From assembly GCA_000091205.1 (NCBI GenBank), contig AP006499.2: DNA of 64,000 nucleotides, one strand, 5' to 3'. The stretch comes from Cyanidioschyzon merolae (lineage: Eukaryota). The translations under genes and the position numbers were made by a program. Below are positions 1-62,316 of the stretch, in pieces. Position 1 is the stretch's first letter. Every line of letters begins with the position of its first letter. Under the pieces are notes generated by a model. It was not told the origin of the DNA, made no database searches, and was given only the letters and a program-made list of their open reading frames with translations.

Positions 1-871
1 CCCCCCATTCCCCCCATTAACGCGATGATCCCAGCGCGAATGCGTCTCTGATTTTGACGTCTATCAATCCATACTCGTTAGGGATATTCCTTCGGCGGTA
101 CGGTCTGGCCTCCTATGCATATGACTTGTTTTTCATCTAGCGTACCAGAGCCATTAGGGAATTACCTCCGGCGCTATGCTTTTTTTGGTCTTGCGGACTT
201 GCCCACTGGTAAGACCGGCGAAATTGCTGTATCGATACTGGTTTCGGGAAATCGTCCATCCCGCTGACCAGTCTCTCTCCCTTCCTCGCTTTTACTTTAT
301 CTCGGCTGTGCTGTTCGGTTCAGATTTTCTATCCTGCGTCGCGTTCCTGCCATGTGCATTCGCAGTGGCGTATCCGTCGCTGCTGCGGATGCATTTTGGA
401 AGGAGAGCAGCTCTGGCGTACCACGGATCGCGTTGGAAATGGTTTGCTTCATGCAACATAGGTTCAAGGACAATTTTTTTCTCGGGAGCCTTCAAGCTTT
501 TCTTGCAGACCTTTTGCCTGCGATAGCGTAAAGCGCTATACCATTCCTCTACCGCAATCTTGGTGACTCTTTAGCGTAATATACCCGCTCCTGGTTCAGG
601 ATCTCTTCTTTTGCCGAGGAGATGCTAAGGTGCGTCTTATCACTCGCTACTGTATTGTCTCTCTTATCAGAGGTTGGTAGAGTCTCGCTGCTTGCCGACC
701 CTCCGCCTAAATGTCACTGCTTGATTATACGCAAAGACTTCTTCCTTTTACTGTCTACAGTAGGTGACATTAGTACTTGCTATCCCGTTTGTGTATATTA
801 TTTTTTTGTACTTTCTATATCGTGCGCCCTGCTAACGCATTGCGAACTCTGTCCGCTACTTCACTCTACGT

Positions 872-3316
872 TCGTGTTGCCGATCATGAGAAACGCGGTA
901 TTGACCTGTTCTGGAGCGACTGCTCTTTCGGGGCCGCCTGCATTTGCGATCGAATTGTATCAAAGTATTGCTTTGGATTCAATGGCGTTTCTAACTTCCA
1001 GTATGTGTATTGTACTGATGTTCGCGTTCAAGGCAGAAGCGTCCGATATGTTGTTCACTTAAAAAATGTCAGAGTTTTGTAATTTGAGGTTGTGGGTTGT
1101 GGATGTCCTGGGTTGCCTAGTTTTGGAACAAACGAGACATAGTAGCTATTGCTGAGGACTAGGAAAAGAAGAGGAAGCAAAATGGGGAGGCGGTACGACG
1201 AAGGCTGCAATAGTGACATCTGTACGACTATATGGTTTTGTGATCCTGTCGTCTCCAACTTATCAATGATCCGTACAACTGAATGTTCCGAGATGCTTTC
1301 AGAAACCGCGTCGATTCGCACTCCAGGAATGCTTGTAAATCTTGTTTAGGAGTGACGCATTTGCATATCGAGCAGCATCGCGAAGTAACGCACATCGCAA
1401 AAGTGGTATTTCCGGAATAGTTTTTCAAAGAGAATTCTATCAACCACCTGATTTCTCCGAATAGGGAAGCATCAATGAGAAGAGAGCGGGCGGATGCCTA
1501 CCTCAAAATTTACGAGAAATTCCGCGACAACGGTGCTGGACACATGGGTGACGCAGGTATTTACGAATACAGGGCAATGAGTTGCCTCACGAACGCGTGG
1601 AACCAAAAAGTCTTAACCGTCGTCTTTTTCATGATAGGCGCCCCCATTGCGCTCTACGCGGGCCCGTTTCGCGAAGGGATGCGGCCAATCATCGATGTTA
1701 TCAGGAACGATCGCCAGCATGAACAGGAGACCATATCCGTCGACAAGGTCATATCATGCTGGTTAACGAATGACGCTTCTCTTATCCGCGCCACTAGTTT
1801 AAAGCATCGTTCGGTCTTGGGGCTTGTCAACCCATGAGAATTATTTTCAGATATGAGTAAAGACGAAGAGATTTGTTACACCCTCCTCATGTCCTACTCC
1901 ATGCTTTTGGACCGAGAACTCGAACGCAAGGCCGAAATGGAGCTGAATATGGTTTCAATGAATTGTTGGAAAAAATGGCACTGAAGAGCTTCTCCAGATG
2001 CGCTTTATTTCGGTCGATTATGCGAGTTCAAGTCACATTTTGTGAGTATCTACTCTAGATTTCTTTACGCCTTCAAGAAAGTGATTTATCCAGTGCCCGA
2101 TAGAAGCAACAAAGAGGTCACTGGCGAAGACCGGGACACCTACTGGAAGTATAACTTCGATTGCAAGCGTCCGATACCGGCCAAAAGAAGGTATTCACGG
2201 GGCCATCGATGACGACGGGGTATACATATTGGTTCACTTTCAGCGGTTGCAGGCACTTCGTCCTATCCCGTCTCCGTTACCGCCCTTGCCGAAGCACGAA
2301 AACAAGACGAAAGGCCACCGGACGTATCGTCTACACGAGAACGACTTCGTCGTCGGCCTTTACTCCTGGAATACTGACGTGATTACCATCGCTGTACCCA
2401 AGCGTTCGGAAGATTTTACTGAATGTAGCTTACGTCAGAAAGACATGCGTCTTTTTCAGGTTCTCGAGATCGAGGTACTACCGAGAAGCGGGAATCATGA
2501 ATCCGAGGGAGAAAATTGAGACTTTAAATCCAGCAGTGAAAAAGCATCTGGAAGTAATTAGCGAGGTGACGAGCCGACGAGCCGACTCTCAGGCCTGTCG
2601 AGAATTGAAGGAGGTTCGTTTTGTCCACTGGGATTCGCTGTTGAAGGAGTATAAAAGGCCCCGGTGGGCTAGTCTACCTATGAGTCCTTACTGTGGTAGG
2701 CAGCGTTCATTCGCGAACTTTTTCAATGCGTTGAACGCCTCCAGGAGAATGAGAGTCAGTGGCTCATAGTAGCCTGTGCAGCAGGGAGCAGGGCTCCAAA
2801 AAAGCGGACTACGCCAGCTTCGTCGACGAGGACATACAATGCGTGTGCACGGCGTTTTCTTACAATCCCTGTTGATGAGTTCCGAACATCGTGTACACAC
2901 CATGCGCTGGGCTGTATACTTCAGAGGGTGGAGATGGAAAAGTGTCAGCGCAGCCCTGGGGAATTAGCAAAGTACGGACCGCTGACGGAACTGCAAATGG
3001 AAAGAAGGGCGAGAGTTCCTGAACTACTTGCATTGGCAAGTACAACGAATGAGGGCAAGAAACGGATGGGGTTTGTAAATCGTGCCTTTGATGCCGCCAT
3101 CTATTTCAGAAGAAGTGCGGTGCTGGAGAAAGTACCTCCAGAGTCGACATGAGAGAACTTTGTTTGACAACCTCTCAAAGTCGAACTATATGAGACAAGA
3201 TTGGACGCAGGAGTAGGTGGCCGGTCCAAAAAGACGGGGGGCGTCTGCATAGCAATGGGAGACTTCTCGCTAGGGCGGGCTTCTCGCCAGTACTGTACAC
3301 TGCCGGCGTCGTTCGA
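872..3316 (+). mobile_element. Fanzor/TnpB-like element, copy A (degenerate, full length ~2.4 kb)
   Basis: Left-end similarity to copies B and C (…acg|ttcgtgttgccg…aacgcg…) and right-end similarity (…ccagtactgtacactgccggcgtcgttcga). Internal ORF fragments are homologous to the copy B and C proteins. Flanking sequences are unrelated, so this is a transposed copy rather than a segmental duplication. Confidence 0.55.
1475..3152 (+). pseudogene. Decayed Fanzor/TnpB-like nuclease gene of copy A (multiple frameshifts; RuvC-I GADP changed to GLYSW; RuvC-III NRDFNAA changed to NRAFDAA)
   Basis: ORF fragments 1475-1837, 2229-2519, 2497-2769 and 2928-3152 align to copy B segments (…NDFVVGLYSWNTDVITIAVPKRSED…, …[19 protein letters not shown]…, …FVNRAFDAAIYF…). 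The GTGAGT site is conserved at 2042-2047. Confidence 0.5.
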
Positions 3317-3375
3317 GTGTAAAAGGCGGTGGTGGCCTGGAAGCTCGGACTCGTCGTCGGTGAGCACCAGACGTT

Positions 3376-32062: not shown

Positions 32063-33123
32063 AGCAGCATAAACTCAAGGTTGCAGCCCAACCTAGATGA
32101 TATCCCAAAGCAGACTTACAAAGTGTAACCAGTCCTACCACAGGGCCGGCACTTGCCCTCCCGAACACAACCCAGACCGAACAATACGAATTGATTGTAT
32201 AGAGCAGGCCGTTGGAGCCGACTACGAGGTTTGGCTTCGCCAATCGCGCGCGCCAGCTCAACGCGCATTCGGTTACCGCAAGTGCATCGCAGAAATCAGA
32301 CAAAGGCGACGTCGCACGGAGCACACTTCAAATGAAACGGCGTCGTGATTGGAGCAGTGCCAGGAGCGCCGCGCACACCTCAGATGAAACGCATTCGCAT
32401 GCGTGTGTGGCTGCGTGTGTTCGGATCGACGAGCGTCAGGCGCACTGCGATGCGCCTCAGTGCAGCAGCAGCAGCAACGAGATCGGCACAAGATTACGAA
32501 GCGATGCGTGCCGGCGCGCGCGTTGTTTCCGAGATCCCAGGCGTCGACGCGTCGATGGTGGTGGTGGTGGCAGGCGGGCGCCTGGATCTCCATGTATGTC
32601 AGGGCGGTACTGCGATGGGCAGTAGCGTCGGCACCAGCGACAGAGCCTATAGCAAGAGATTATTCTACGTGAGTTTCCGATCTACGAGACTTTATTTCAG
32701 CTGCAGCACGATGCGAACACGCATGTGCCAAGGCGGGGTCTTGGACACGTGTCCTTCATCGATCGGTGAGGCGTCTCGCGCGGTGCACGCATCTCGCGAA
32801 GTGAGCGCATCTGGGGGATCAGGCAGTCAATTGGAGCGACGCGCGTGTCGCCGTTGTTGAAGGGAAACGCGATGTTGATCTCTAGTGTGTTGTTCAGCTG
32901 TAAAAGTTGTATTTGCGTTGGAGTCGAACAAAAATATAGTTTTCAATTCATTTGTGTTTCAGCCCTCAAACAAGTCTAGTCAAGTGTTCTTTCGCAGTAT
33001 ATAACAGAAGGGTTCACAGAGCGTTCTTTCTCAAGAAACTGAAAAAAGAAAAGTTATGAAAAGCAAGTCCACGATCCTGGAGGCCCAGGGCCGCCGGCTG
33101 CCAGACAAAAAAAACGAAAAACA

Positions 33124-34026
33124 GTGCCGAGTCCAGAAGAAAAGGAAGAGAAGAAGAACCGAAATGGGGAGGCCCTACGTCGAAGGCTGCAAGAAAGACG
33201 ACAGTACAACGAGATGGTGGTGAAAGCCTTTCTTCTTGGACATATCAAGGATCCGTACAGGGAAAAGTTGCGAGACGCTATCGAAAAACTTGTCGACTCG
33301 TACTCCAAGAGTACTGTCAAGGCGTCGTCAGGACTGATGCATTTGGCGAGGGAGATGTACGAAGACGTGGCGCACATGGAAACGGTCGAGATTCCGGACG
33401 AGTTTTTCGACAAGACGTTTATTCGTCACCTGATGCTTGGTACAGCGGAAACGCGGAGGGAAAATGAGCGGGTTCACGCTCTTCACGAAAACTTCGCGGA
33501 GCTCCGCTTCGAGAGTAATCGATACAGGGGTGATCGGGATATTTAGACAAACGGAGCGAAAAAGCACATCACCAGTCTGAAGTACCATTTGACAGTGAAC
33601 ATCGAACGTTTCGTGATACGGGCCGTGTTTCCACTCTACTCGAGCCTATCTCGCAATGGAAAATGGGCGATTATCAATGACATCACGAACGATCGTAATC
33701 ATGAAGATGAGGTCGAATTTGTCGACAAGAAGGCGGCAAACCAGAGCACGAATGAAGCTTCTGAAATCCGTGCGGTTATACAAGAGCACCGTGCGGTACT
33801 AGGGTTGGCGAATCCAACAGAAAAGATATCAGAGCTGAAAAAAGATAAGGAAAGATGCTATCGCCTCGTCTTACGGTATTTCGCGTTTTCGTTCCGAGAA
33901 CTCGAACCCAAGACCGAAAAGCGTCTGAGTAGGGGAAAAATGCAGAGTCGGAGAGACGGAAGGTTTTTGCAATGGGGAAGCGCTTCAACGTGGTTCCAAT
34001 GTGCAACATTAAGTCACATTTTGTGA
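33124..34026 (+). CDS. Element-encoded N-terminal ORF (~300 codons), conserved in all three copies; single in-frame TAG at 33544 in copy B
   Basis: …EEKEEKKNRNGEALRRRLQERRQYNEMVV…LMHLAREMYEDVAHMETVEIPDEFFDKTF…HENFAELRFESNRYRGDRDI*…HLTVNIERFVIRAVFPLYSSLSRNGKWAIINDITNDRNHEDEVEFVDKK… aligns with copy C (57773-57112, minus strand) and copy A (1475-1837). Copy C has TAT/TAC (Tyr) where copy B has TAG. Function is unknown; it is possibly an N-terminal extension of the nuclease joined by splicing. Confidence 0.4.
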
Positions 34027-34183
34027 GTATCGACTCCGGCGTCCTTTACGGCATCATGAAAGAGATCTGTCGGAGTTCAGTGTCAGCAGGGAGGAATTCA
34101 CCGGCGAAAACCGGGAGACGTACTGGAGGATTAACTTCAATTTCAAACGTCTGGAAGCGAGCAAACAGCAGGTATTCACTGGA

Positions 34184-35473
34184 ATGATCGAAACCGATGG
34201 AGTAGCCTTGCGTGTACACTATCGGCGGTTGAAGAAAGATCGTCCAGTTCCGCCCTCGGCGAACCATGAAGATGAGAAGGAGGCGGATCCTGTGACGCAG
34301 GAGGTGGAGGATAACGACTTTATGGTTGGCGCGGCGAAGCATAAAGATGGGAAGGAGGCGGGTCCTGCGACGCAGGAGGTGGAGGATAACGACCTTGTCG
34401 TTGACGTAACGAAGGATGAAGATAAGAAGGAGGCGGATCCTGCGATGCAGGAGGTGGAGGATAGCCACATTGTCGTTAGCGCTACGAAGCATGAAGAAAA
34501 GAAGGAGGCGGGTCTTGAGACGCAGAAAGTGCATGATGACGACTTTGTCGTTGGCGCTGACCCCAGAAACACAAATATCATCACCATCGCAGCACCGAAG
34601 CGCGCAGAAGATAGTACTGACGGTAACTTGCGTCAGAAAGACATGCGTCTGCTGAGGTTCTCGAGAGCGAGATACGGCCGAGAATCGGGAATCATGAATG
34701 CAAGGAACAAAATCGAGACTTGGAATACAGGAATGAAGGATCTCCTGGAAGCTATGAGCAAGGTGACGAGCCGAGGAGCGGACTTTCATGCTTTTCGGGA
34801 GTTTATGCAAGTTCGTGTTGCTCATTGGGATGCACTGTGGGAGGAGTATACAAAGCCCCGGTGGGCTCGGTTGCGTATGAATTTGTACAGTGGGAAGCAG
34901 CGGGAGTTCGCGATCTTTTTCAATCACTTGAGTGCCCTCAAAGAGGACAAGACTCAAAGGCTCGTAGTAGCATACGGAGCAGGGCGCTGGGCGCCCAAGA
35001 AAGGTACTACGCCAGCTCCAACGACGAGGATGTACAAGTCGTGTGCACGGCGTTTTCTTACAATACCTGTAGATGAGTTTCGAATGTCCTACACACACCT
35101 CGAGCTGGTTTGTACACTTCAGAGGGTCGAGATGGAAAAGTGCCAGCCGAGCCCTGAGGAAATAGCAAAGTACGGACCGCTGACGGAGGAGCAAATGGAA
35201 AGGAGAGCGAAATTTCGTGGACTACTGGCACTGGTGAGTACAACTCCCAACGGCACGAATCGTATGGAGTTTGTTAACCGAGACTTTAACGCCGCTCTCA
35301 ATATAAGGAAATGTGCGGTGCTGGAGACGAGACCTCCAGAGTGGACAAGAGGGAACTTTTTTGGACAACCTCTTCAAGTTCAGTTATATGAGAAGAAGTT
35401 GGAAGCAGCAGTAGGTGGCCGGTCGAAAGAAACTGGAAGGCGTCTGTACGTCAGTTGGAGACTTCTTGGCTAG
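34184..35473 (+). CDS. TnpB/Fanzor-like RuvC nuclease core (429 codons; probable upstream exon 33972-34022 starting MGKRFNVVPMCNIKSHF)
   Basis: RuvC-I is …[23 protein letters not shown] (Asp at 34559-34561). RuvC-III is …[14 protein letters not shown] (35276-35305), exactly the TnpB/Cas12 pattern. A candidate relocated catalytic Glu lies in …[18 protein letters not shown]…, since the canonical RuvC-II position reads VVAYGAGRW. The stop falls 43 bp before the element right end. Note that the ORF-track Met at 34184 is an alternative (TTG) start; the real start is probably upstream. Confidence 0.6.
34280..34579 (+). repeat. 75-bp in-frame tandem repeat x4 inside the Fanzor-like ORF; the last unit encodes the genuine RuvC-I motif
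   Basis: Units begin at 34280, 34355, 34430 and 34505 (gaggcgg(a/g)tcctg(t/c)gacgcaggaggtggaggataacgac…). They encode [75 protein letters not shown] and [25 protein letters not shown]. Copy C has 2 units and copy A has 1. Confidence 0.8.
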
Positions 35474-35516
35474 GGCACGGTTGCCGCCACTACTGTACAC
35501 CGCTGGCGTCGTTCGA
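35330..35516 (+). ncRNA. Candidate omegaRNA (guide-RNA scaffold) region overlapping the 3' end of the Fanzor-like ORF and the element right end
   Basis: This segment is about as conserved at nucleotide level as the rest of the element across all three diverged copies (A 3150-3316; C 55518-55690, minus strand), through and beyond the ORF stop, to …ccactactgtacac(c/g)(g/a)ctggcg at the boundary. In TnpB and Fanzor systems the omegaRNA occupies this position. No expression data are available. Confidence 0.3.
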
Positions 35517-35534
35517 CTTTCGAACGGCGTTCGG

Positions 35535-37271
35535 ATGCGGCGGACTCTTCGGCAGTTTTCGCTCACCATGACACAGGTAGTCAAGAGAAGTGATGCGGAA
35601 ACCGAGTCCTCGTTGGGCGCATACGAGCGCGAGCGACTCGCGCGGATGGAACGGAATCGTATGCTCATGGAAAAGCTGGGTGTCACCTCACTTTCGAACC
35701 GGCTCGAGACGATCACGACTGTTCGGGAGCAAGCCCTCAAACCCATAGGTTACTCGAAACGCACGCCAAAGGCGGAGAAAAGGGCGCGCAATTCTGAAAA
35801 CGAAGTAGACCGTGGAGAGCTGGAGCCACGGCGTCGTTCGCTTCGTGTGCGGGGAATCGCCCCGGCCGGAGCTGGAACATCAGCAGAGGAACCGAAAAAT
35901 AGCCAGCTACAGCTGAAGGAAGAGGAAACATCAAGAGGTCCGTTTTTGGAAGACCAGACGTTCGCAGAGGTTGCCCTAGAAAACTATGGTGCCACTAGCG
36001 AAAGCTCCATGGTCAACGACGACTACGACCGCAGCGACGTAGACGACGTCGATGGTAACAAAGACGACGGAGACCAGAAGAGCTTGTGTACGCGGCGCGC
36101 CAGGTTGTTCCAGCGAGCCTGGTGCGGTGCAATGGCATGCACTTCCTTGTCGACAAGTGAGCATCTCGCGAAGGATCCAAGCCGTTTTCACCGCTGGGTG
36201 CTGGACGAGGCCTCGGGCTTCTTCAAGCTTGTTCCAGCACGTATTTATTCCGCAACCATGCATCCGCGTCTCGATGCATGGACCATGATGGTTGGCGACA
36301 AGGCAGGTCATGTGGGCCTTGCTGTTGTACCACGGGAACGCGTCGCAGAACATGCTGTTCAGGTGCTGTGTATGCGAGTTCACCGCGACACAACCGCTGG
36401 CATGGCACCACGTGCGGGTTCCGCCAACTCCCAACAGCTGCTAACAGTGTCCTACGACGGCAGTGCGCGCTTGCTAGATATCGAAAAACAAACAATTCAG
36501 ACAGTCCTCGTCGATGAGCGAGAACGAATTTTCAAGAGCATAGCGCTCAGTACAGAGAACGACAACGTCTTTTGGACCACTGCCAGCCATCGCTCACTTG
36601 GTGGATTCCTGGTTCGCCACGACCTTCGACAGAGCCAGAAATCGTTCGATGCTTTCGGTATCTCTGACAGCAGAGTCTACTCTGTTAGTTTACAGCATCA
36701 GGGCGCTGCAGGAGCAGTCCCCGGCCATGACGGTCTGCTGGCGGTCACGACGGCGCGAGATGGTGTTCTCATTTTTGATCAGCGTCGAATCGAGACTGGC
36801 GCTACTCGCCGATCAACATCAAAACCGCTTTTTGCTCTACCACACGAGCGCGCAACAACTGCAGCAACTTGGTCTCCGTCGGCGACGCGGCTGCTGACCA
36901 CCTGCTACGATGACTTGCTACGCATATGGCATTACGACGGCAGCGAGTGCTCGCTCGAACACCGCTTTGTACACAACAATCACACCGGTCGATGGGTTAC
37001 GCCTTTTGAGGCATGCTGGGACCCAGCTACGGACCACAAGATTTTTGCGTGTGGATCCATGAATCATAACCCGGTCCATGGCGTGGACCTCTTCCACGTG
37101 GAGCTCAACAAACGATCAGTCTGGAATCGGTTGACTGGCGAGCCCATGACGGCGATTGCGGCTGTCCTGGCCTGGCACCCGGCAGGGCATGCGCTCATAG
37201 GCGGGACTGCATCAGGCAGGGTATATCTATGGGGCGAAGCTCACGGATCTGAGGGCGTCCTCGCAGCGTGA
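35535..37271 (+). CDS. WD40-repeat protein, WDR76/CMR1-like (DNA-damage-associated)
   Basis: N-terminal motif LGAYERERLARMERNRMLMEKLGV resembles the conserved WDR76/Cmr1 N-terminal motif, followed by WD40-like repeats (…VSYDGSARLLDIEKQ…, …LTTCYDDLLRIWHYDG…). The first ATG outside the element is at 35535; 35568 is also possible. Confidence 0.55.
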   Translation: MRRTLRQFSLTMTQVVKRSDAETESSLGAYERERLARMERNRMLMEKLGVTSLSNRLETITTVREQALKPIGYSKRTPKAEKRARNSENEVDRGELEPRRRSLRVRGIAPAGAGTSAEEPKNSQLQLKEEETSRGPFLEDQTFAEVALENYGATSESSMVNDDYDRSDVDDVDGNKDDGDQKSLCTRRARLFQRAWCGAMACTSLSTSEHLAKDPSRFHRWVLDEASGFFKLVPARIYSATMHPRLDAWTMMVGDKAGHVGLAVVPRERVAEHAVQVLCMRVHRDTTAGMAPRAGSANSQQLLTVSYDGSARLLDIEKQTIQTVLVDERERIFKSIALSTENDNVFWTTASHRSLGGFLVRHDLRQSQKSFDAFGISDSRVYSVSLQHQGAAGAVPGHDGLLAVTTARDGVLIFDQRRIETGATRRSTSKPLFALPHERATTAATWSPSATRLLTTCYDDLLRIWHYDGSECSLEHRFVHNNHTGRWVTPFEACWDPATDHKIFACGSMNHNPVHGVDLFHVELNKRSVWNRLTGEPMTAIAAVLAWHPAGHALIGGTASGRVYLWGEAHGSEGVLAA

Positions 37272-37509: not shown

Positions 37510-38965
37510 GGCCTGGGTCCTGAGCTGAAGAGCATCGTTGCCACCGCCGAATCTCTAAGTAAAAAAGGGCACAGCCGAAGACTTCAACAAGAACGCAGAT
37601 GCTGCTGCTCAACTTTTCCAGTGCTCGGTATCATCGACACTCGGGTATCATGGACGCCAGGAGGCATACCATCAAGAGGAATAGAGACGTCAGGTCCCAT
37701 TCCGACGCTCCGAACACCGTATCGAGCAGAGGATGGCGCTGTGTTCGCTTCATTGAGAGCGCTTCTGTATGCGTCCAAATCGCATATGCAGACGATTTAA
37801 GGCAGAAGTACATGAGATCCTGGTGCGGTTAGCAACGGTTGCAGTTTTATGGAGCCAAGAGGCGTAAATTCACCAACTTATTGAAAAGGGCATCTTAAGA
37901 AATGACCTACGATTCGCGTCGTTCGCTGGTATCCTATACCGTTGGACGCGCTATGCCAAGCCAAACCTGCACTGCTGTTCCTTCGAAGAGCACGTCTAGT
38001 GAGTGCAGGGATCGATGCAGCACGATTTCCATCCATGCGTTCAGTGCGAGACGGACGCCTCGCGAGCGAGGGTGCAGCTCGAAACATAGAGAGAAAAAGA
38101 ACGCGGAATAGAAAAGGATGCACGAGATCGTATACAGTATGCTGACGAAACGGCCATTTGCGCGGAAATCGCAAGTCAGCGACTTGCTATGATGTGATTC
38201 CATCGGCAAACACGTACACAAGCAGTTCCTGCACCCAGGCATCAAGGACTCGATCTCCATACGGGTGTGTCTCGTGCATCGGGAGGGTCCACGGGCTTTA
38301 TGCTGAGCGGAATTTCGAGAGAATGATGTAACATGCAGTATGGGTATTGTGCTGAATCGCCCAATAACTGCGATGATGAAACAAATCAATGGCGAGGAGA
38401 AATGGGATTTGATTCTGAACTGCAGCGAGGCACCGGTTTGGTGCGCTTCAGTAACCGAGAAAGTCTGCGTCCCTAAAGGAATACATCGGGGAGAAAGTTC
38501 CGGTAAAGCTGGTGAGCAATAATGGTGCTCCATAATTCGATATTCAGAGTTCTGCGAAAATGATCACAGCATACGACTTGGTTGAATATACGCACCGAAG
38601 ATGTGCAGCTGCCGCGATGTCAGCAATGTATCCTTCTGTGGCAAATCGCCAGGTCAGCGCCCAAGCTGCTTTTCAACGTGTTCCTGACTCGACAAATCAA
38701 TCACGAATCAAGTAGGCGGTTCTCTGTGGTCGTATCCATGAACTGAAGACAGTGAAACGCTCAAACAGCGACGATTTTGAGGACGATGATAGCTACTACA
38801 GCCTCGACGCCTCGCGGCATGAGATGCGGACGCAATCGAGCGAAGCAAACTTCTTCAGCGCTGTTCATCCAGCCATGGGAAGAGCGCCAGCCAGCGGCTT
38901 ACTCAACTGCGAAAGCGATCCGAGGATGTATCGCGCAGCCCGCCGACGTGACGCCTCAACAGACG

Positions 38966-46172: not shown

Positions 46173-47043
46173 AAGGAGCGTTAGACGTTCGCCAGCACAC
46201 CAGCGTCGCGAATGCTCCGAAACGGAACGCCGGAGCGGAGCGCGCCAGCCCGTCCAGATTCGGCAACGCGACGTCGGGCGAATCGCGCAGGCAGCAGCAC
46301 GGCGCGCCAGCGCCCAGAGGCCTCCGTATGGATGTGTTCCGATTTTGCTCAGATTTTACAGGATGTTGACACAGGCCAGCGTGCCGCCACGGGGTGGTGC
46401 GCGTGCGATCCGCGCGCGGTGAAGAAGCATCCAGCATACGACATCGGAGAACGCTGGCCTAAGTAAACGTTTTGTCAATGAAAAAAATCCAGCATTCGAC
46501 GCCCTATGTCCAAATTCTATAATCCATGCTTCCTTCCGAACGGACTGGCCGTTCCATACGCTCTATCGTGCGCCGAGTGCGTGCGTTGCTGCATCCGCAA
46601 TAGAGCATATATCGCAGGTGCTTGTGCAGCTCGGAGATAGAACGGCTCTTCGATACCACCTAGGGCGCTTCGGCTCGAGGTATCATGCATTCAACACCGG
46701 ATCGCGTCTCTCCATCATTCTGGGGGCCTGCAAGCTGCGCAGCGAGACTGACTGCCCACGACAGCGCGAAACGATACGCAAGGAGATAACTGCAACCGGG
46801 GCGATACCTGGATGCATGCTACCCGCCCCTAGTCTCAAAATGAACCGCGTTACGGATGAGTCGCTGAGAGCTGACTACAGCTCCCGCCACTGTAGAAGAA
46901 TACGGAGCGATAGCCCGGTAGATGCGTCCATCTCGGGGGATCTTACGCCTAGCAGCTAAACATTCGACAATACGGAACGCTTCCCGCCCCTTTTCAACGC
47001 TTACCACGAAGGTGTAACGAAAAAATGGTCGCGTTGCTCGTTC

Positions 47044-48996
47044 ATGATTCGTTGCTGTTCTCGGTTTTGGGTAGCCAGTCGCGATCGATCGCGGATCGCT
47101 GGCGGCCGCACGTTGCCGGCGGGCATGAACGGCCGCCGCACCTGCATCCGCTTACGGAGGCGGCTTCTGGCCACTCGGGCATATCTTGAAATATTTCAGA
47201 CGCAGAGACTAGCACTTTGCGCTGAAGAGTTGGTTGACCGAAGAGACGTGAACGGCATGGAATATTCGAGTGCTCATTCCGAAAGAGGAACGACCGTAAC
47301 ACATGTGCACTCCAGTGCGAAGCCTGTTACGAGTACGGGTAGCGTGCAGCGAGGCACGCCGTCGCGATCGACGCCGCTGACAACGCCAGTACCGCCAGCA
47401 GCGGTTGCTGCACACCAGCAAACGCTGACGGGCGTCACTTCTGGTCTAGGGAGCTCAACTCTGTCGCATCCTGGTACACAACCGACGGCGGCGGTGACGG
47501 TGCAGGGCGTCAGCCCGGGGAGCCACCTGGGTGCGACGCAACGAGTTGCGGCTGCAGTTCAGGTCGGATCGCCTGTGGTGCATGTGGGCTCTGTCGGTTC
47601 AACGTCGACGGGAAAGTCACCTATTACTGGAGAGAAACTTGTCGCAGCGTCGCTTGATGCGCTGTCAGACTTGGGGCGAGATGTCGCACCGCACGCAACC
47701 CCCACAGTACCTGCGGGTGGCGACCTCGACGCCCCCTGTGTCGTTATTAAAATCGGGACCAGCACCATCATGCGCTACGATTCCGAAGGAGAGGCCGGAG
47801 AACTCGCGCTCTCGACCCTGGGCAAGCTGGTCGACTCCATCGTTGCGTTGCGGCGGCTGAACCACAATGTCGTGTTGGTCACATCCGGGGCAGTTGGGGT
47901 CGGCTGTCGGGAGCTAGGTCTCCGGAAGCGCCCCGATTCCCTTCGGACGAAACAGGCTATGGCAGCTATTGGACAGTGTAAGCTAATGCGCGTTTACGAT
48001 GATTTGTTTCGCTTCTCCGGTCAGACGATTGCCCAAATTCTCCTGACCAGGGAGAATCTGAGCCAAAAGCACCAGTATTTCAACGCTCGAAACACCATGC
48101 GTGAGTTGCTGCGACTAGGTGTCGTTCCAATCGTGAACGAAAACGATACGGTGGCCACCGAGGAATTGCGCTTTGGTGACAACGACCGCCTGAGCAGTCT
48201 AGTGGCCGGCATGGTCGAGGCCAAGTGGCTGTTCCTCCTGACCGATGTGGACAAACTGTATACGGCGGATCCGCGCCAGCATCCTGGCGCTGAGCCTATC
48301 GACATCGTCCACGACATGGAGCAGCTGCACGTGCGACTCTCAGCGAACGAGGATGCCGTGTCGAGTGAACAGGAGCAACGCGCGGAAAGCGATACCCATG
48401 CTGCACACGGCCCCAAATCTCAGCTTCAAGGTGGCCAGGTGCCGCGGGGTGGCACCCAGTGGGGCTCGGGCGGCATGGCTACGAAGATTGTTGCCGCGCA
48501 GCTTGCTACTGCGGCCGGTGTCCATGTTTGTATCATGCACGGCCGTCGTCCAGAGGGTATTCTGGAACGTGTTCTGGACAAGAAGGGCTCGTCGCGTATC
48601 GGGACGGTGTTCTTGGCGTCACGCGAACCGATTCGCGGCGGTCGCAAACGGTGGATCGCTCACGGCCTTGCCCCGAAAGGCAAACTCTACGTTGACGACG
48701 GCGCTTGCCGAGCAGTGGCACGCCATAACTCTCTGTTTGCTGCGGGCATTCGTGAAGTTGACGGCGACTTTGAAGCGGATACAGCGGTCTCTATTGTTCG
48801 CCAGAGCGATGGCCTCGAAGTGGGGCGCGGTCTCACGAATTACTCATCGGATGAAATCCGTCGCATCATTGGTCTGCACAGCAAGGAAATTCGTCGGGTT
48901 CTCGGGTACCCTGGTCCAGACGAAGTCATCCATCGTGATAATCTTGTTGATTTGCTGGGCACAATCAGCAGCAGTGATGCCGATGAAACGGACTAG
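47044..48996 (+). CDS. Glutamate 5-kinase (ProB/Pro1 type, with PUA domain) and a long Ser/Thr/Pro/Ala-rich N-terminal extension
   Basis: Kinase core …CVVIKIGTSTIM…VLVTSGAVGVG…VVPIVNENDTVATEELRFGDNDRLSSLVAGMVEAKWLFLLTDVDKLYTADP…; the PUA region is …KLYVDDGACRAVARHNSLFAAGIREVDGDFEADTAVSIV…. The true start may be an internal Met (the kinase domain begins ~aa 235). The ORF ends at TAG. Confidence 0.8.
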   Translation: MIRCCSRFWVASRDRSRIAGGRTLPAGMNGRRTCIRLRRRLLATRAYLEIFQTQRLALCAEELVDRRDVNGMEYSSAHSERGTTVTHVHSSAKPVTSTGSVQRGTPSRSTPLTTPVPPAAVAAHQQTLTGVTSGLGSSTLSHPGTQPTAAVTVQGVSPGSHLGATQRVAAAVQVGSPVVHVGSVGSTSTGKSPITGEKLVAASLDALSDLGRDVAPHATPTVPAGGDLDAPCVVIKIGTSTIMRYDSEGEAGELALSTLGKLVDSIVALRRLNHNVVLVTSGAVGVGCRELGLRKRPDSLRTKQAMAAIGQCKLMRVYDDLFRFSGQTIAQILLTRENLSQKHQYFNARNTMRELLRLGVVPIVNENDTVATEELRFGDNDRLSSLVAGMVEAKWLFLLTDVDKLYTADPRQHPGAEPIDIVHDMEQLHVRLSANEDAVSSEQEQRAESDTHAAHGPKSQLQGGQVPRGGTQWGSGGMATKIVAAQLATAAGVHVCIMHGRRPEGILERVLDKKGSSRIGTVFLASREPIRGGRKRWIAHGLAPKGKLYVDDGACRAVARHNSLFAAGIREVDGDFEADTAVSIVRQSDGLEVGRGLTNYSSDEIRRIIGLHSKEIRRVLGYPGPDEVIHRDNLVDLLGTISSSDADETD

Positions 48997-55461: not shown

Positions 55462-57773
55462 TTACTTAGCGATGAGCCGCCACGAACGATAAACGTCTTT
55501 CAAAAGAAAAACGCTGTCGCCAGTCGTGTACAGTAGTGGCGACCGGCGCCTTAGACAAACCGTCTCCAACTCAGTGTAGACGCCTCCCCGTCTTTTGGAC
55601 CGGCCACCTACTCCTGCTTCCATTTTTTTCTCATATAGTTCCACTTTGGGAGGTTGTCCAAAAAAATTGTCTCTTGGCAAGTCGTCTCCAGCACCGTACA
55701 TCTCCGTATACTGATAGCGGCATTAAAGTCACGATTCACAAACTCCATACGTTTCTTGCCATCACTGGTTGTGCTAACCAATGCAAGTAGTCCCCGAACT
55801 TTCGCCCTGCTTTCCATTTGCTCTTCCGTCAGCGGTCCATACTTTTTTATATCCTCAGGGCTCCTCTGGCACTTTTCCATATCGACCCTCTGAAGTGTAC
55901 ACCCCAGTTCATGGTGTGTATACGATGTTCAAATTTCATCTACAGGTATCGTAACGAAACGCCTTGCGCACTCCTTGATCGTTCCTGTCGTTGGAGCTGG
56001 CGTAGTCCCTTTTTTCGACGCCCAGCGCCCTGCTCCGTATGCTACAACCAGCCTCTGACTTTCATTCTCCTTGAGGGCACTCAACTCATTGAAAAAATTC
56101 GGAAATCCCCGCTGCTTCTCACAGTATAGATTCATCCGCAGACGAGCCGACCGGAGCTTTGTATACTCTTCCCAAAGTGCATCCCAATGCGCAACATGAA
56201 CTTCCAGGAACTCCCAGAACGCTTCAAAGTCCGCTCCACGGCTCGTCATCTCGCTCAGAGCTTCCAGGTGATCCTTCATTCCATGTCTCGACTTTCTTCC
56301 TCGCATTCATTATACCGGATTCTCGATGGTATCTTGCTCTCGAGAACCTCAAAAGACGCATGTCTTTCTGACGAAAGTTGCCCTCAGTACCATCTTCCGC
56401 ACGCTTCGGTGCTGCGATGGTGATGATATTTGTGTTTCCGGGGTCCGCGCCAACAACAAAGTCGTTCTCCTGCACTTTCTGTGTGGCAGGATCCGCGTCC
56501 TTCTTTTCTTCATGCTCAGCCGCGCCAACGACAAGATCGTTATCCTCCACCTCCTGCATCACAGGATCCTCCTCTTTGTTTTCTTCATCCATCGTTACGG
56601 GCGCAGCCGAGGGCGGAACTGGCCAATCTTTCTTCGACGGCCGATAGTGTACACACAAGGCTACTCCATCAGTTTCGATCATCCCAGTGAATACCTTTTG
56701 TTTGCTCACTTTGAGACTTTTGAAATCGAAGACGTTCTTCCGGTACGTCTCCCGGTTTTCGCCGGTGAATTCCCCCCCTGCTGACACTGAACCCCAGACT
56801 GATCTCCTTCATGATGCCGTAAAGGATTCTGGAATCGATGCTCACAAAATGTGACTTGATGTTGCACACTGGAACGGCACTGAAGCGCTTCCCCATTAGG
56901 AAAGTCTTCCGGTCTAACGACTCTTCATTTTTTCCTCACTCAGATCCATCTCCGCCTTGCGTTCGAGTTCTCGGTCCAAAAATACGAAATCGCGCAGAAT
57001 TAAGGGACCACATCTTTTTCTATGTCTTCTCATATCTGATACCTCTGCTGCTGGATTCGCCAGCCCCAAGACTGCACGTTGCTCTTGTATAGCCTCACGG
57101 ATTGCAGAAGCTTAATTCTTTCTCTTGCGTAATCTCTTCTTGTCAACGAACTCGATCTCATCTTGATACTTTCGATCGTTCGTGATGCCATTGATAATCG
57201 CCCATTTTCCATCGCGAGATAGGCCCGAGTAGAGTGCAAACATGGCGCCTATCATGAAACGTTCGAGGTTTACTGTCAAATGGTTCTTCAGATTCGTGAG
57301 GTACTTCATCGCCCCATAGTCGTAAATATCCCGGTCACCCCTGTATCGAGTACCCTCGAAGCGGAATTCCGCGAAGTTTTCGTGGAGGGCATCCACTAGC
57401 ACATTTTCCTTCAGCGCTTGCGCTGTACCAAGCATCAGTTGACGAGTCAAGGTCTTGTCGAAGAATTCTTCCGGAATCTCGACCGTTTCCATGTGCATCA
57501 CGTCGCCGTACATCTCCCTCGCCAAATGCATCAGCCCTGACGACGCCTTGACAATACTCTTCGAGTCTGAGTTGACACGTTTTTGATAGCATCTCGCAAG
57601 TTTTCCTTCGACGGATCCTTGATATATTTAAGAAGACCGGCGTTCACCACCATCTCGTCGTACTGTCGTCTTTCTTGCCGCCTTCGACGTAGCACCTCGC
57701 CCTTTTGCTTCTTCGCCTTTTCCTGTTCCTCTATATTCGGAACTGGTTCCGTTTTTCTCCGGCAGCTGTCCAC
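55462..57773 (-). pseudogene. Fanzor/TnpB-like gene of copy C, broken by several frameshifts
   Basis: Overlapping ORFs 57531-57773, 57112-57531, 56669-56896, 56224-56787, 55929-56306, 55608-55880 and 55462-55701 (all minus strand) together reconstruct the copy B protein (…[63 protein letters not shown]…, …[17 protein letters not shown]…). The overlaps indicate frameshifts rather than introns. Confidence 0.55.
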
Positions 57774-58022
57774 GCTACTCCTCCAGGATATTTTACTTCC
57801 TTTTCCATAACTTTCCTTTTTTCAGTATTTTTCGGAAAGAACGCTCTTCGAACGCTTCTGTTATAAACCGCGAAAAATCACTTGAATTATCTAAACCGAA
57901 GTTTGAGACACGATTGAACAGAAAACTATAGTTTGCTATGACTTGAACGCAAATGCAACTTGTACGGCAGAGCAAGATCATAAACATCAGGACCACGTTT
58001 CCCTCCAACGGCAACATGCGCG
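55518..58022 (-). mobile_element. Fanzor/TnpB-like element, copy C (pseudogenised, ~2.5 kb)
   Basis: The reverse complement of 57781-58022 aligns with the copy B left end (…acg|cgcatgttgccgttggagggaaacg…agttgcatttgcgtt…). The reverse complement of 55518-55690 aligns with the copy B right-end tail (…ccactactgtacacgactggcg). Confidence 0.6.
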
Positions 58023-59031
58023 TAGTATCTCATGCCTGCATGATCTCCCAGGTACGCGTATCGAACACACTATGTGGAACAAAGAACAGAGACGAACGAT
58101 TCACGAGCTTCGATATATATATATATTTCGTTCCCCCCTCTACGATGAACGTTACAAGGGGGAAAGATTTCGGTATTTTAGAAAGTTTACCTCCTAGGCG
58201 GAAGGTCCATAGAGCCGTACGAGTCTGCTAGGCTGGTGCTCGGTGTGCCTCTAAAGTGGCTGGTGCTTTAGCGAGACCTGAGCAACTCGTCTGCAACGCA
58301 GTTTATACTAGGTCTCGGATAGGGTATGCTGCGTTTGGGCGTCGCCCAGGTCCTAGTGGGCTCCTTGTATATCGCTTCGCGCTACCACAGGCAGAACGTC
58401 TCTCTGTACAGCTTGCAGGCTCCCAGAATGATAATTAACCGTGATTCCGTGTCAGGTGTAGGATTCTGCGAGCCGACGCCCTCAGTGGTATGGCAAAGTC
58501 GTTCTGTCTCCGTGCAGCGTCTGCCCCAGTGGTATACGCGCTACGGCGGGTGCAGCAAGGCAGGCACTCGGCACACGACAGAACATACGAAACGGCCAGT
58601 ATACCCGAGAGGAAGTATAAGTAGTGGAACTTGAATGTAGGTGCTTCATCACTGACGCTTTCCCGCAAGCCATGACCCATCCCGAATTCTGGGATGCATG
58701 GTCAATGTAATCGTTTTGTCATCTGGAAAAACAGCAACATGAACATCGACGACATGCGTCATGAGAAACGTGCCAAGGAATGCTAGTCATATACAAAGCG
58801 GTCATGCGAATCCAGAAATCATGGACATGGGCATCGCAATGCCGGTCCATGATCGACAGCCATGCGAACATGCATGACATGTCCATTGCAATGCGACAAT
58901 CTATGACATGCGGCGATGAAAGAGCGTGCAGCGAACGCGCGCGCCGATCGACATGGCGCGCCGCGATCGAGACGCGCGCGTCGTTCGCGCGGCGGTGACC
59001 TGTTTTCGGTAACGCACAAACGACGACGAGT

Positions 59032-59757: not shown

Positions 59758-62316
59758 GCTTGCGTATCGTTTGCGCTCTGACCAGTGGGCATCGTTGGAT
59801 TGTGGTGCTCGCAGCCGTGTCTGCCGCGCTGACTTATCTTCTCCTCCAGCAAAAGTGTAGATGTTGCTTAGGCGGCTGCAGAGAGCACGATCGTGAACAT
59901 AGGCACCGGTTCCTGAAAGGTCGTCGCTGTATCTGCGGGTCCTGGCTCCACTGTTGATGCAGCAGTCGCTGGGATTCCGGGCCGGGCGAGAAGATCTGAA
60001 AAGTGTACAAGCGACTTAGGCGCAAGGAGCAAGTTGCGTGGACGGATCGACGCGGTCTTCTTATCGAGAGAACGCGAGCAATCAGGGTACTGTCACTTGC
60101 GCTCGACCAAGACTGGCGGTTCGTTTCCCGCGTGGCATCTGTCGTGCTATCCAGGAGCCGCTGCGCGTCACCGTCACGCTCGGTAGGCTTGATGCGGTAT
60201 TCCGCAAACTGGACTGGTTTGAGCAGCATGACGTAACGTTGTGTGGATGCTGTCGCCTTGTTCGCGTTTCCAGGACACCTGCTTTGGGTAGTCCAGTCGA
60301 GTACACGTAGCTTTCTGATGCTACAAGCTCGATAGACCCGTTACCCACGCGTGCGCATTTTTGCAGCCTTTACTGGCACTCCACAGAGCGTATCTACTTC
60401 GTCGAACGTAGGCGACATGGCGCACGGGCCGAGCAAGTGATCATCTAGGTGCGATCAAAACGGTACATTGCCATCCACGACGCAAGAGCGCTTGGTAGAC
60501 GGCATGCAACCATACCAGCATTTATTGCATAGTGCATAATGCGCATCCAGCGTATATCACTGACGAGAGGCGGGCGTGTCGCAGAGAAGACACGCCAGCT
60601 ACGCAGGTCTGAGATTGCGATTGGAGCAGGGCGTTGCGAGCGGCGACGCTCAATGAAGAGCCAACGGAATCCAGTGGCTGGGCACTAACGATACCCCGCA
60701 CAACGCTGGTTGTACATGGAAACTATCTAGCATATACTCAGCAATAGCGAATAACAGAACGCCATCATGGTTCACAAACTGCACAGGAAAGTTGTTCGCG
60801 GTATATACATACGGCGCTCGTGCTGTACTGCGTTGCGGACCGCACCATACCAGTGCCTTGCTTCGGGCGAGAATTCTAAGGGACTCCTCTCGAGGCTTTT
60901 GGATTTTAGTCATAGAAAGTCTCGAACGTTTCAGCACAATGCCCAGACTGCGTATTAAACGATTTTCTCGTACATTCGCTCGAGCCGAAGCTGCTGCATG
61001 CCACGGATGCATGCCACATTTCCAAATGTTTACGAATACCCAGAGGTCTCGGTGCCGAACGTCAGCACACGCACTGTTGCCGGTGGACGCACACCAGCGC
61101 AAGCCGCTCACCATCGATTGCCACTCCACGTGACGTTCGGTCCGCGTACCGTGCAGTATACTGTGCACTCGTCTCTGTTTCATGCTCTTCTTCTCTAGCT
61201 GTCTCAACGGGCGCCCTCGCTGGTGATGCGTTCATGTCATCCTGGATGCATCGACGGGAATGGTAACGAATCGAATCCTGCATTCGGTGAACGCGCTCGT
61301 CGAAGGTACAGGTGGGCGCCAATGTGTGATGCAGCATCTCCAGCGCCACTGGACAGAACCAAACGACACGAATTATCCGTCATTGCCTTTCCAGACACAT
61401 TGAACAAGCTGATGAGTGCAAGCCTCGTGCCCGAGTATGCCAGGAACCGTTGGCAAGCCGAGCGCTGTCCCGGGCACGCTCTAAAGCGTGCGTTGATACC
61501 TTCCATCGGTGCCCTGTTTTCTGGGCGATTGGCCTCAGGCTGCGATGGGTACAACCCAGACACGGTGCGCTTCATTCAGCGTTCGAGACCGATCCGTATC
61601 TAATTTTTGAGGCTGGTCTGATCATTGGTGGCAGCAGCGAAATAAACTTTTTTTGCGACGGCTGAAATCGCTTGGCGAAGCGTCGAGGTATTCTGGAGAG
61701 CGGGGCTTCGAATCTCTGATCCTTTGATCGGGCCGTCTCGCATCCTCTGTCCAGCACATCCTTCATGCTGTCGCGTGATGCCCTAATCGAGACATGATAG
61801 GGAAATGGGAATAGATGGGAGCTCTGCGTCCGGAAACTCGTACGACCGGTTCGTGGACGGGATATGTCAAGGCGAGCGTAGCCAGGCACGTCTTCTTCGA
61901 GTAAGAAGCTATGCGACTTTTAAAGGTGTCTTGCACCTTTCAGTATTAGGGAAGCGAACGACTCTTGTATGGATTCATGGGCGCTAGAACGGTGTGTGAA
62001 AACAGAGCGAATGCCTTTGACAGGATTCAACCTGGGAGAACATGCTGGCACGACGTCGAGTCGGCGCCAAGCTTAGCTTTGTTCCCAATAACCGATTTTT
62101 AGTGGCCGAAAAAGACGGTGCATAAGAGCAGGACAGAAGAATACGGGAAGCAGACGCCGCAGAATGTGCTTCGGCCAAGGATCCGGGGTTGAATGATTCG
62201 CTTTGTTCGTGGATCCATGGGGAATCACAGGATTGCATGGTCATCAGGGCGGGTATTGTCGGGAAGCACGTTGATCGCTCTCGTTTACGAACAGCAGTGT
62301 TTTATTCTTCGAGTAC

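Follow-up and report, generated by a model that had tools for sequence, protein, structure and literature searches.

Inactive insertions assigned to the Fanzor1-encoding repeat CMe-1A in the left arm of Cyanidioschyzon merolae chromosome 17

Three related regions in the 64 kb that open the left arm of chromosome 17 of Cyanidioschyzon merolae 10D (the window, by which we mean the whole 64,000-nucleotide stretch analysed) are, at a probability that we put at about 0.93, old and inactive insertions of CMe-1A, the ~3.2-kb C. merolae repeat also known as the 'WSV repeat', the single gene of which encodes a Fanzor1 protein. The repeat was reported in 2007 (Nozaki 2007, BMC Biol 5:28, PMC1955436), and its protein was identified as a Fanzor1 six years later (Bao & Jurka 2013, Mob DNA 4:12, PMC3627910); the family is hence not new. 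An earlier reading of the letters by themselves (the original prediction) had proposed a TnpB/Fanzor1-like nuclease element in three copies and had left open whether the lineage had been described before; the identification was right, and the lineage proved to be in print already.

Assignment to a published repeat family

The assignment is carried by alignment to the published CMe-1A consensus, which spans 3,169 bp (supplementary file 2) and encodes a protein of 734 amino acids (aa) (Bao & Jurka 2013, PMC3627910). All three regions, here called copies A, B and C, aligned to it in blastn searches, copy A at 71% identity over consensus positions 37-3145, copy B at 83-87% over 670-3169 and copy C at 84-87% over 2-3169. 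The left end that we derived independently (CGATGACAAAACGTTTACATTGACC...) coincides with the first base of the published consensus, the right end lies ~4 nt (TTTG/TTCG) past it, and the 734-aa protein carries the same motifs as the open reading frame (ORF) in the window. Copy C (3,244 bp) and copy A (~3.1 kb) agree in size with the ~3.2 kb of the family. The 5' 635 bp of CMe-1A are common to TE-N2_CMe, an element of 70 copies (Bao & Jurka 2013, PMC3627910); copies A and C keep this 5' module, which also occurs alone at 46503-47061, and copy B is without it. With 71-87% identity to the consensus and an orthologous insertion in a related strain, the copies bear out the earlier view of an old resident family.

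CMe-1A is the single Fanzor1 family given for C. merolae, with ~150 copies that are ~80% identical to a ~3-kb consensus and of which some are still intact; it is without terminal inverted repeats (TIRs), its target-site duplication (TSD) was undeterminable and its transposon class was left 'unknown' (Bao & Jurka 2013, PMC3627910). The 'WSV repeat' was counted at 253 copies with a mean length of 3.2 kb, making up ~5% of the genome, interspersed and transcribed, with a truncated ORF showing weak BLASTX likeness (E = 1e-5 to 4e-2) to wsv486 of white spot syndrome virus (WSSV) (Nozaki 2007, PMC1955436). A biochemical study of the C. merolae CMe-1 protein was not found in the searchable literature.

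Copies and boundaries

A repeat finder and self-BLAST both returned the three copies, A and B on the plus strand and C on the minus strand, 75-85% identical to one another and with no similarity between their flanks outside the element, as had been predicted. Beyond the window, 365 related stretches were recovered from metagenome contigs, and 71 distinct copies in differing contexts were analysed; the copy alignment comprises 67-71 distinct copies, drawn from the window copies and 80 metagenome loci. Per-column conservation in this alignment was ~0.9 up to position 35499 of copy B, 0.72 at 35500-35529 and 0.40 beyond 35530, and the right end is placed at ~35533 because homology among the 71 copies is lost there, with conservation dropping from 0.84 to 0.40. 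The left boundary is sharp in many copies, including A and C, where a T-rich tract is followed by CGATGACAAAACGTTTACATTGACC; in copy C this left-end motif occupies 58700-58733.

The refined extents are 223-3308/3332 for copy A, 32816-35529/35533 for copy B and 55490/55494-58723/58733 for copy C. The ends originally predicted to be shared by all three (872-3316, 32840-35516 and 55518-58022) were misplaced, for A and C reach 650-710 bp further 5' and copy B is 5'-truncated, leaving no common left end. Neither a TSD nor TIRs are visible at the refined ends, and in this respect the original prediction, which had noted the missing TSD, stands. All three copies are dead; the damage to each is listed with the coordinates in Table 1. 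Copy C has an orthologue in a further locus, L078, to which it is 99.2% identical.

Table 1. Coordinates of CMe-1A copies, their parts and related relics in the window
Feature	Position	Strand	Remarks
Copy A	223..3332	+	Near full-length, strongly decayed, 71% to consensus; at least 3 stops and at least 3 frameshifts
Left-end scrap	30011-30031		GACGAAACGTTTACACTGACG
Copy B	32816..35533	+	5'-truncated CMe-1A, consensus 670-3169, 83-87%; without the ~635-670-bp TE-N2_CMe-like 5' module
N-terminal (REC/WED-equivalent) coding remnants of copy B	33052..34183	+	Frames 1 and 3; tblastn with P0113 and P0015
Open 429-codon ORF of copy B	34184..35473	+	Acidic repeats and complete RuvC domain
75-bp tandem repeat	34260..34558	+	4 units; Tandem Repeats Finder, repeat finder, protein alignment
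Catalytic codon D126	34559-34561
Catalytic codon E298	35075-35077		G265 stands at the canonical RuvC-II site
Catalytic codon D367	35282-35284
Conserved non-coding 3' tail	35474..35533	+	60 nt; alignment of 69 distinct 3' ends
3'-terminal stem-loop	35507..35529	+	CGTCGTTCGA / CTT / TCGAACGGCG, 10-bp stem
Second-lineage relic	37599..38360	+	C-terminal RuvC part, 4-5 stops; tblastn with P0113, 35%, E = 2e-35
Inverted scrap of left-end motif	46456-46490		Beside the solo 5' module
Solo 5' module, TE-N2_CMe-like	46503..47061	+	Consensus 84-634, 72.8% (blastn); self-BLAST match to 58158-58600
Copy C	55490..58733	-	Full-length, ~3.24 kb, dead; at least 6 in-frame stops and at least 1 frameshift (tblastn)
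Second-lineage relic	60926..61930	-	Fragmented, with stops; tblastn with P0113, E = 3e-23

The 429-codon ORF of copy B

The ORF of copy B is present on the plus strand with the RuvC motifs that the original prediction had quoted. It had been called intact and is instead the surviving RuvC half of a broken gene, copy B being without the 5' module, the start region and an open N-terminal frame. It corresponds to about 45% of the 734-aa consensus protein, at the C-terminal end, with extra repeat units added. Upstream of it, the N-terminal remnant is broken by an in-frame TAG at 33544-33546 and at least two frameshifts, and the match of P0113, a full-length relative of 676 aa, to copy B is spread over three frames. 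L083, the orthologous copy from a related strain, is 98.4% identical from 32904 onward; relative to it, copy B has a 1-bp deletion at 34070 that cuts the ORF off from 71 more codons, which remain in frame in L083, where a longer ORF of 500 aa is kept. A spliced gene, which the original prediction had also suggested, is unneeded and was dropped because the breaks are a stop codon and 1-bp indels, some common to the orthologue and one polymorphic between the strains, in a genome in which only 0.5% of genes carry introns (Nozaki 2007, PMC1955436).

The 75-bp tandem repeat within the ORF encodes an acidic unit of 25 aa, predicted to be disordered, which directly precedes the RuvC-I strand. The unit closes with ...DNDFVVGA, a sequence that resembles the beginning of that strand. 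Its number among family members ranges from 0 (P0113) to 6 (P0007).

On its 5' side, copy B differs from L083:837-1611 in that the orthologue has the full 5' module and a different upstream flank; the homology of the 10D sequence to L083 breaks near an 18-bp tandem repeat (32766-32812; break region 32766-32904). The pattern points to a strain-specific rearrangement, or to ectopic recombination, on that side of the copy.

Homology to Fanzor1

Sequence profiles and a predicted structure both confirm that the protein family of the window ORF is Fanzor1, the eukaryotic homologue of TnpB, an RNA-guided nuclease borne by transposons. In sequence searches this homology was detectable only with a broad profile of 56 sequences (A3), which matched the solved Fanzor1 structures PpFz of Parasitella (9cf0, E = 1.1e-18), SpuFz of Spizellomyces (8gkh, E = 8.4e-11) and GtFz of Guillardia (9cer, E = 1.3e-5) in the PDB and aligned the 'DPG' of RuvC-I, 'DEFRT' and 'NRD' to their counterparts in those proteins. 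The window ORF is tied to the profile through P0113 (E = 3.7e-79) and through a search of cluster representatives, the exhaustive form of which returned 1,544 representatives, many of them 600-700 aa long; weak Pfam matches to Cas12f1-like_TNB also occur in members of the clade. An AlphaFold2 (AF2) model of the window ORF had a mean predicted local distance difference test (pLDDT) score of 75.9, with 185 of the 429 residues at 90 or above; scores exceeded 90 across most of residues 120-400 and fell below 50 at residues 37-106, which hold the acidic repeats. Searched against the PDB with Foldseek, this model had SpuFz, PpFz and GtFz as its top seven matches (E 7e-11 to 5e-6); Cas12 and TnpB ranked next. 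The gene also lies within a repeated eukaryotic mobile element, as expected of a Fanzor1.

The catalytic site is that of a RuvC nuclease with a rearranged second motif. D126, E298 and D367 are invariant in all 64 clade members examined, and the position of the canonical RuvC-II glutamate is a glycine (G265) in 63 of them; E298 sits 33 residues downstream of G265, in a 'VDEF' motif. As judged from these alignments, an inert canonical position combined with an alternative downstream glutamate matches the rearranged RuvC site described for Fanzors (Jiang et al. 2023, PMC10530073). The earlier claims of Fanzor1 affinity and of a rearranged RuvC-II thus both hold.

Several results speak against this assignment and have to be set beside it. 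Neither the ORF nor full-length relatives scored above noise against Pfam or NCBIfam, PDB searches with P0113 by phmmer or with a narrow 16-sequence profile gave no match, and the sole precomputed annotation of the relatives is DUF8286; the profile check proposed with the original prediction therefore failed with Pfam, NCBIfam and single sequences and succeeded with the broad family profile against the PDB Fanzor1 entries. Moreover, the 2013 Fanzor motif includes a [TS]-[TS]-x-x-C4 zinc finger (OrfB_Zn_ribbon/TNB; PMC3627910), and its four cysteine positions are not conserved here: in the best column, 67% of the clade has cysteine where the window ORF has leucine, and none of the four canonical positions holds a cysteine in that ORF. 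The [TS][TS] pair reads RTSY in the family consensus and MSY in copy B, and the former zinc-ribbon region is still confidently folded in the AF2 model. We take the C4 finger as typical and not obligatory, because the authors of the motif themselves list CMe-1 as Fanzor1 (PMC3627910).

Clustered at 50% identity, the zinc-ribbon-less Fanzor1 clade (P0194-P0341) comprises over 1,500 representatives, mostly from metagenomes and Sequence Read Archive (SRA) assemblies. It is without a name or a Pfam domain beyond DUF8286, and standard annotation gives its members no TnpB or Fanzor label.

Purifying selection and decay

The family protein was under purifying selection during diversification. Conservation across the 71 copies is lower at codon position 3 (0.81-0.85) than at positions 1 and 2 (0.92-0.96), and in the RuvC core the mean pairwise ratio of non-synonymous to synonymous substitution rates (dN/dS) between paralogues is 0.22, at a dS of 0.48. 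Single insertions decay afterwards: the RuvC frame is open in only 10 of the 71 copies. Between copy B and its orthologue L083, dN/dS is 0.74 (8 synonymous and 21 non-synonymous changes), compared with 0.25 for the neighbouring WD40 gene, and copy B appears now to be drifting almost neutrally.

The 3' end and a candidate guide RNA

The element ends in a conserved 3'-terminal hairpin. Within the non-coding 3' tail, a near-invariant block, GCCACTACTGTACAC, occupies 35486-35500 (a motif search for it gave 6 matches against 1.1 expected) and is followed by the stem-loop, whose stem measures 9-12 bp across the family. At least 8 paired bases were found in 60 of 60 tails tested, although some copies form only short stems, so that this particular hairpin is not universal. 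Compared with shuffled controls, hairpin stability had a mean z of -1.68, against -0.05 for flanking DNA. Two registers occur, TTCGA-CTT-TCGAA and TTTTTC-TTTT-GAAAGA, whose helices lie 3 nt apart and differ by about six substitutions (3' ends of L003-L082), and a double compensatory variant, TTCTA/TAGAA, was also seen; copy B has the first of these types ('type 1') and the published consensus 'type 2'. In the final 141 nt of coding sequence, dS is 0.36 instead of 0.48, and the contrast among codon positions is weaker.

We caution against extending this to a larger folded RNA, an extended structured fRNA being unsupported and no scaffold structure being claimed. RNAalifold on the full 3' alignment of 291 columns gave 3 pairs only; folding z-scores in sliding windows, like single-sequence folds, were ordinary save at the terminal hairpin; covariation on the best predicted (ribosum-scored) structure was barely above controls; and an Rfam search of the 3' region returned no relevant match. 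These results tell against a conserved structured RNA at the 3' end of the element, and the conserved tail, the hairpin and the reduced dS at the ORF end speak for one.

Mobility and proposed mechanism

By analogy with characterised systems, an intact CMe-1A element would be transcribed, and the 3' end of the transcript would give the scaffold fRNA (omega-RNA), for which the end of the ORF and the 60-nt tail with its hairpin are the candidate; an extension of the RNA into flanking DNA would serve as the guide. The basic N-terminus would carry the protein into the nucleus, where the RuvC site formed by D126, E298 and D367 would cut matching DNA beside a short motif; such cutting would presumably help the element to be retained or to spread. 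RNA guidance, the fRNA and the mode of transposition are all presumed here from the behaviour of relatives.

Against a mobile element of this kind stands the finding that no transposase, TSD or empty site turned up. No locus was found that is syntenic with the window and lacks the copy, nor was there any filled/empty pair in an all-against-all search of 82 loci. Mobility of CMe-1A is for this reason deduced from copy number and unrelated flanks, and because the element carries no transposase, mobilisation in trans would be required, for which the eight 'bacterial-like transposase' elements of Nozaki (2007, PMC1955436) are candidates. A TIR formed by GCCACTACTGTACAC and the 5' end was considered and rejected, there being no reverse-complement copy at the left end.

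An ACGTTT motif adjoins both ends of the element (left GACAAAACGTTTAC, right GAAAGACGTTTG / GGCGTTTG). Together with the terminal hairpin and the lack of TIRs and TSDs, it makes an HUH-type mechanism a reasonable idea on sequence grounds. A fuller proposal, which we regard as speculative and rather doubtful, is that some of the CMe-1A-type genes still open in Cyanidiales encode an active Fanzor1 fitted to acidic springs of ~40-55 °C, working without a C4 ribbon and with an fRNA that ends in a hairpin abutting the guide, a hairpin that could double as an HUH-type, TSD-free DNA signal. If true, such a dual role would link Fanzor1 to IS200/IS605-like mobility in a eukaryote.

Alternative explanations

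The least probable alternative is that segmental duplication of a host gene, and not a mobile element, gave rise to the three regions, the case that the original prediction had itself named as its refutation if syntenic flanks were found. Copy A does lie in a subtelomeric block, next to a protein-O-mannosyltransferase gene with near-identical paralogues on other chromosomes, and homologous subtelomeric elements of up to 20 kb are on record for this genome (Nozaki 2007, PMC1955436), so that copy A, and only A, may owe part of its spread to segmental duplication. The flanks of A, B and C are nonetheless unlike beyond the element, the metagenome stretches represent distinct copies in different contexts, 150-253 dispersed copies are reported from all chromosomes (PMC3627910, PMC1955436), and independent copies lose homology at the same consensus ends, all of which argues for insertions of an element. 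It is extremely unlikely, too, that the repeat is an endogenised viral gene related to wsv486, the reading that gave the 'WSV repeat' its name, and not a transposon-type Fanzor. The BLASTX likeness on which that reading drew is probably one of Fanzor to Fanzor, because the WSSV genome is itself listed with one Fanzor1 (SWv; Bao & Jurka 2013, PMC3627910), which we infer to be wsv486; the nearest relatives are instead the >1,500 cluster representatives of ~600-700 aa and the solved eukaryotic Fanzor1 proteins, and the copies are not accompanied by other viral genes.

The ORF of copy B might instead encode a working RuvC protein, truncated at the N-terminus and perhaps domesticated, which would accord with the 429 open codons, the three catalytic residues, the even longer ORF of the related-strain orthologue and a dN/dS below 1. 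We consider it very unlikely all the same, since the ratio of 0.74 comes from 8 + 21 changes and is unlikely to differ from 1, with the adjacent host gene at 0.25; the whole N-terminal half, which in solved Fanzor1 forms the RNA- and DNA-recognition lobes, is missing; the two strains differ by a frameshift in the former coding region; and the exact protein is absent from a collection of 15 billion proteins that does hold the 10D NCBI proteins of neighbouring genes. Less easily set aside, though still improbable, is the possibility that CMe-1A is a non-autonomous HUH-type element (Helitron2-like or IS200/IS605-like) that carries Fanzor1 as cargo and is mobilised in trans, its hairpin being a DNA signal instead of, or besides, part of an fRNA. 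Consistent with this are the lack of both TIRs and TSD, a 3' hairpin maintained through a register shift and a compensatory change, the ACGTTT near both ends and the T-rich tract before the left end; Fanzor1 is moreover a known cargo of Helitron2 in Chlamydomonas, Helitrons have 3' hairpins and Helitron2 prefers a 5' T. However, the consensus ends, inspected by eye only, show neither a 5' hairpin nor a convincing pair of asymmetric TIRs, the 3' hairpin directly abuts the element end, the 10 largest ORFs of the window have host domains only (RepHel and Y1 were not searched for beyond the window), and the class was left 'unknown' by Bao & Jurka (2013, PMC3627910). We therefore keep to decayed insertions of the Fanzor1-encoding repeat CMe-1A as the reading of the three regions.

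Further relics and the chromosomal setting

The window holds more than the family of three originally predicted, as the solo 5' module, the end scraps and two further relics in Table 1 show. Both relics, at 37599-38360 and 60926-61930, match proteins of the P0113/P0194 type at 35-40% identity, have no DNA match to the CMe-1A consensus and are weakly alike in DNA (66% over 235 bp); they apparently represent a second, more divergent and undescribed Fanzor1 lineage. The solo 5' module abuts a glutamate-5-kinase gene.

The host is C. merolae: four long ORFs of the window are annotated strain 10D proteins, three of them letter for letter (BAM81939, BAM81948 and BAM81959) and one as a variant (BAM81957). 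The sequence opens with CCCCCCATTCCCCCCATT, the complement of the telomere repeat AATGGGGGG that is unique to C. merolae (Nozaki 2007, PMC1955436), and for this reason the window is taken as the left end of the chromosome; two units of the repeat (CCCCCCATT) stand at positions 1-18. Copy A starts ~200 bp inside the telomere repeat, and the first 3.3 kb of the chromosome are essentially one decayed element. The adjoining protein-O-mannosyltransferase gene (3848-5545) falls into a 90%-identity cluster with C. merolae BAM80644/BAM81152 and BAM82295 from other records, which fits the duplicated subtelomeric blocks of Nozaki (2007, PMC1955436), and a block of this kind, instead of transposition, may have carried copy A. 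The genome as a whole is gene-dense (Nozaki 2007, PMC1955436), and H3K27me3 covers about half of the repetitive elements of C. merolae.

Downstream of copy B lies a WD40 gene (35415-37271), the longest ORF of which begins with GTG within the element; Joint Genome Institute (JGI) gene calls on the orthologous contig likewise read it as 618 aa from a GTG inside the element. A start at the in-frame ATG at 35535, 2 nt past the element end, or at 35568 is more plausible, and copy B therefore ends right at the 5' edge of the WD40 gene.

Significance

As a discovery these insertions carry little weight, the repeat having been described in the C. merolae genome papers and listed as Fanzor1 since 2013; what is new is minor and consists of the paralogue dN/dS of 0.22, the conserved 3'-terminal hairpin and the loss of the C4 zinc ribbon. 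The leads worth keeping are this zinc-ribbon loss, the terminal hairpin, the strong historical purifying selection and the second-lineage relics. This Fanzor1 clade still escapes standard domain libraries: over 1,500 of its representatives have only a DUF label, so that reading raw sequence can reveal what annotation pipelines miss. Offering a large natural sample of Fanzor1 from a thermoacidophile, the family combines strong past purifying selection with a degenerate zinc ribbon and a terminal hairpin; its consensus protein would be a reasonable candidate for testing as a thermotolerant compact nuclease, and its copies should be useful for learning how Fanzor elements without a transposase move.

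Comparison with known systems

The closest known system is CMe-1A itself, the same family in the same genome, with which the window copies share the left end, the protein motifs, ~80% divergence, the absence of TIRs and the TE-N2_CMe 5' module; nothing essential differs, except that the window copies are defective, B by 5' truncation and A and C by multiple stops. With the solved Fanzor1 proteins SpuFz1 (8GKH), PpFz (9CF0) and GtFz (9CER), the family has profile homology from WED/REC to RuvC and the same fold in the RuvC half, including the RuvC-I aspartate, 'DE[FY]xT[ST]' with its relocated glutamate, 'NRD' and a non-acidic residue at the canonical RuvC-II position. Identity to these proteins is only 12-20%, however, and whereas SpuFz and PpFz have a CxxC...CxxC zinc ribbon, the clade to which the C. 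merolae family belongs does not conserve it; the C. merolae family also differs from them in the acidic 25-aa tandem repeat before RuvC-I.

TnpB of ISDra2 (8H1J; a lower-ranking Foldseek match, E = 1e-3) is likewise a single RuvC nuclease in a transposon, and the conserved 3' end of CMe-1A takes in the last part of the ORF, the place in which TnpB elements encode their omega-RNA. ISDra2 TnpB retains the canonical RuvC-II glutamate (PMC10530073), which is relocated in the C. merolae family, and the C. merolae element differs further in lacking a TnpA partner, in its eukaryotic host and in a protein about twice as long. WSSV Fanzor1 (SWv, the presumed wsv486), the BLASTX match to which named the repeat, stands in a viral genome and shows weak similarity only (Nozaki 2007, PMC1955436). 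Helitron2-type elements are defined by 3' and 5' hairpins, asymmetric terminal inverted repeats and RepHel in autonomous relatives. The Fanzor1 genes borne by Helitron2 in Chlamydomonas (CRe-1, CRe-2 and CRe-3; CrFNuc) resemble CMe-1A in their high-copy, non-autonomous algal carrier, 3'-terminal hairpin and conserved 3' untranslated region, but no sign was seen in CMe-1A of the asymmetric TIRs, 5' hairpin, variable TSDs or introns that the CRe elements possess.

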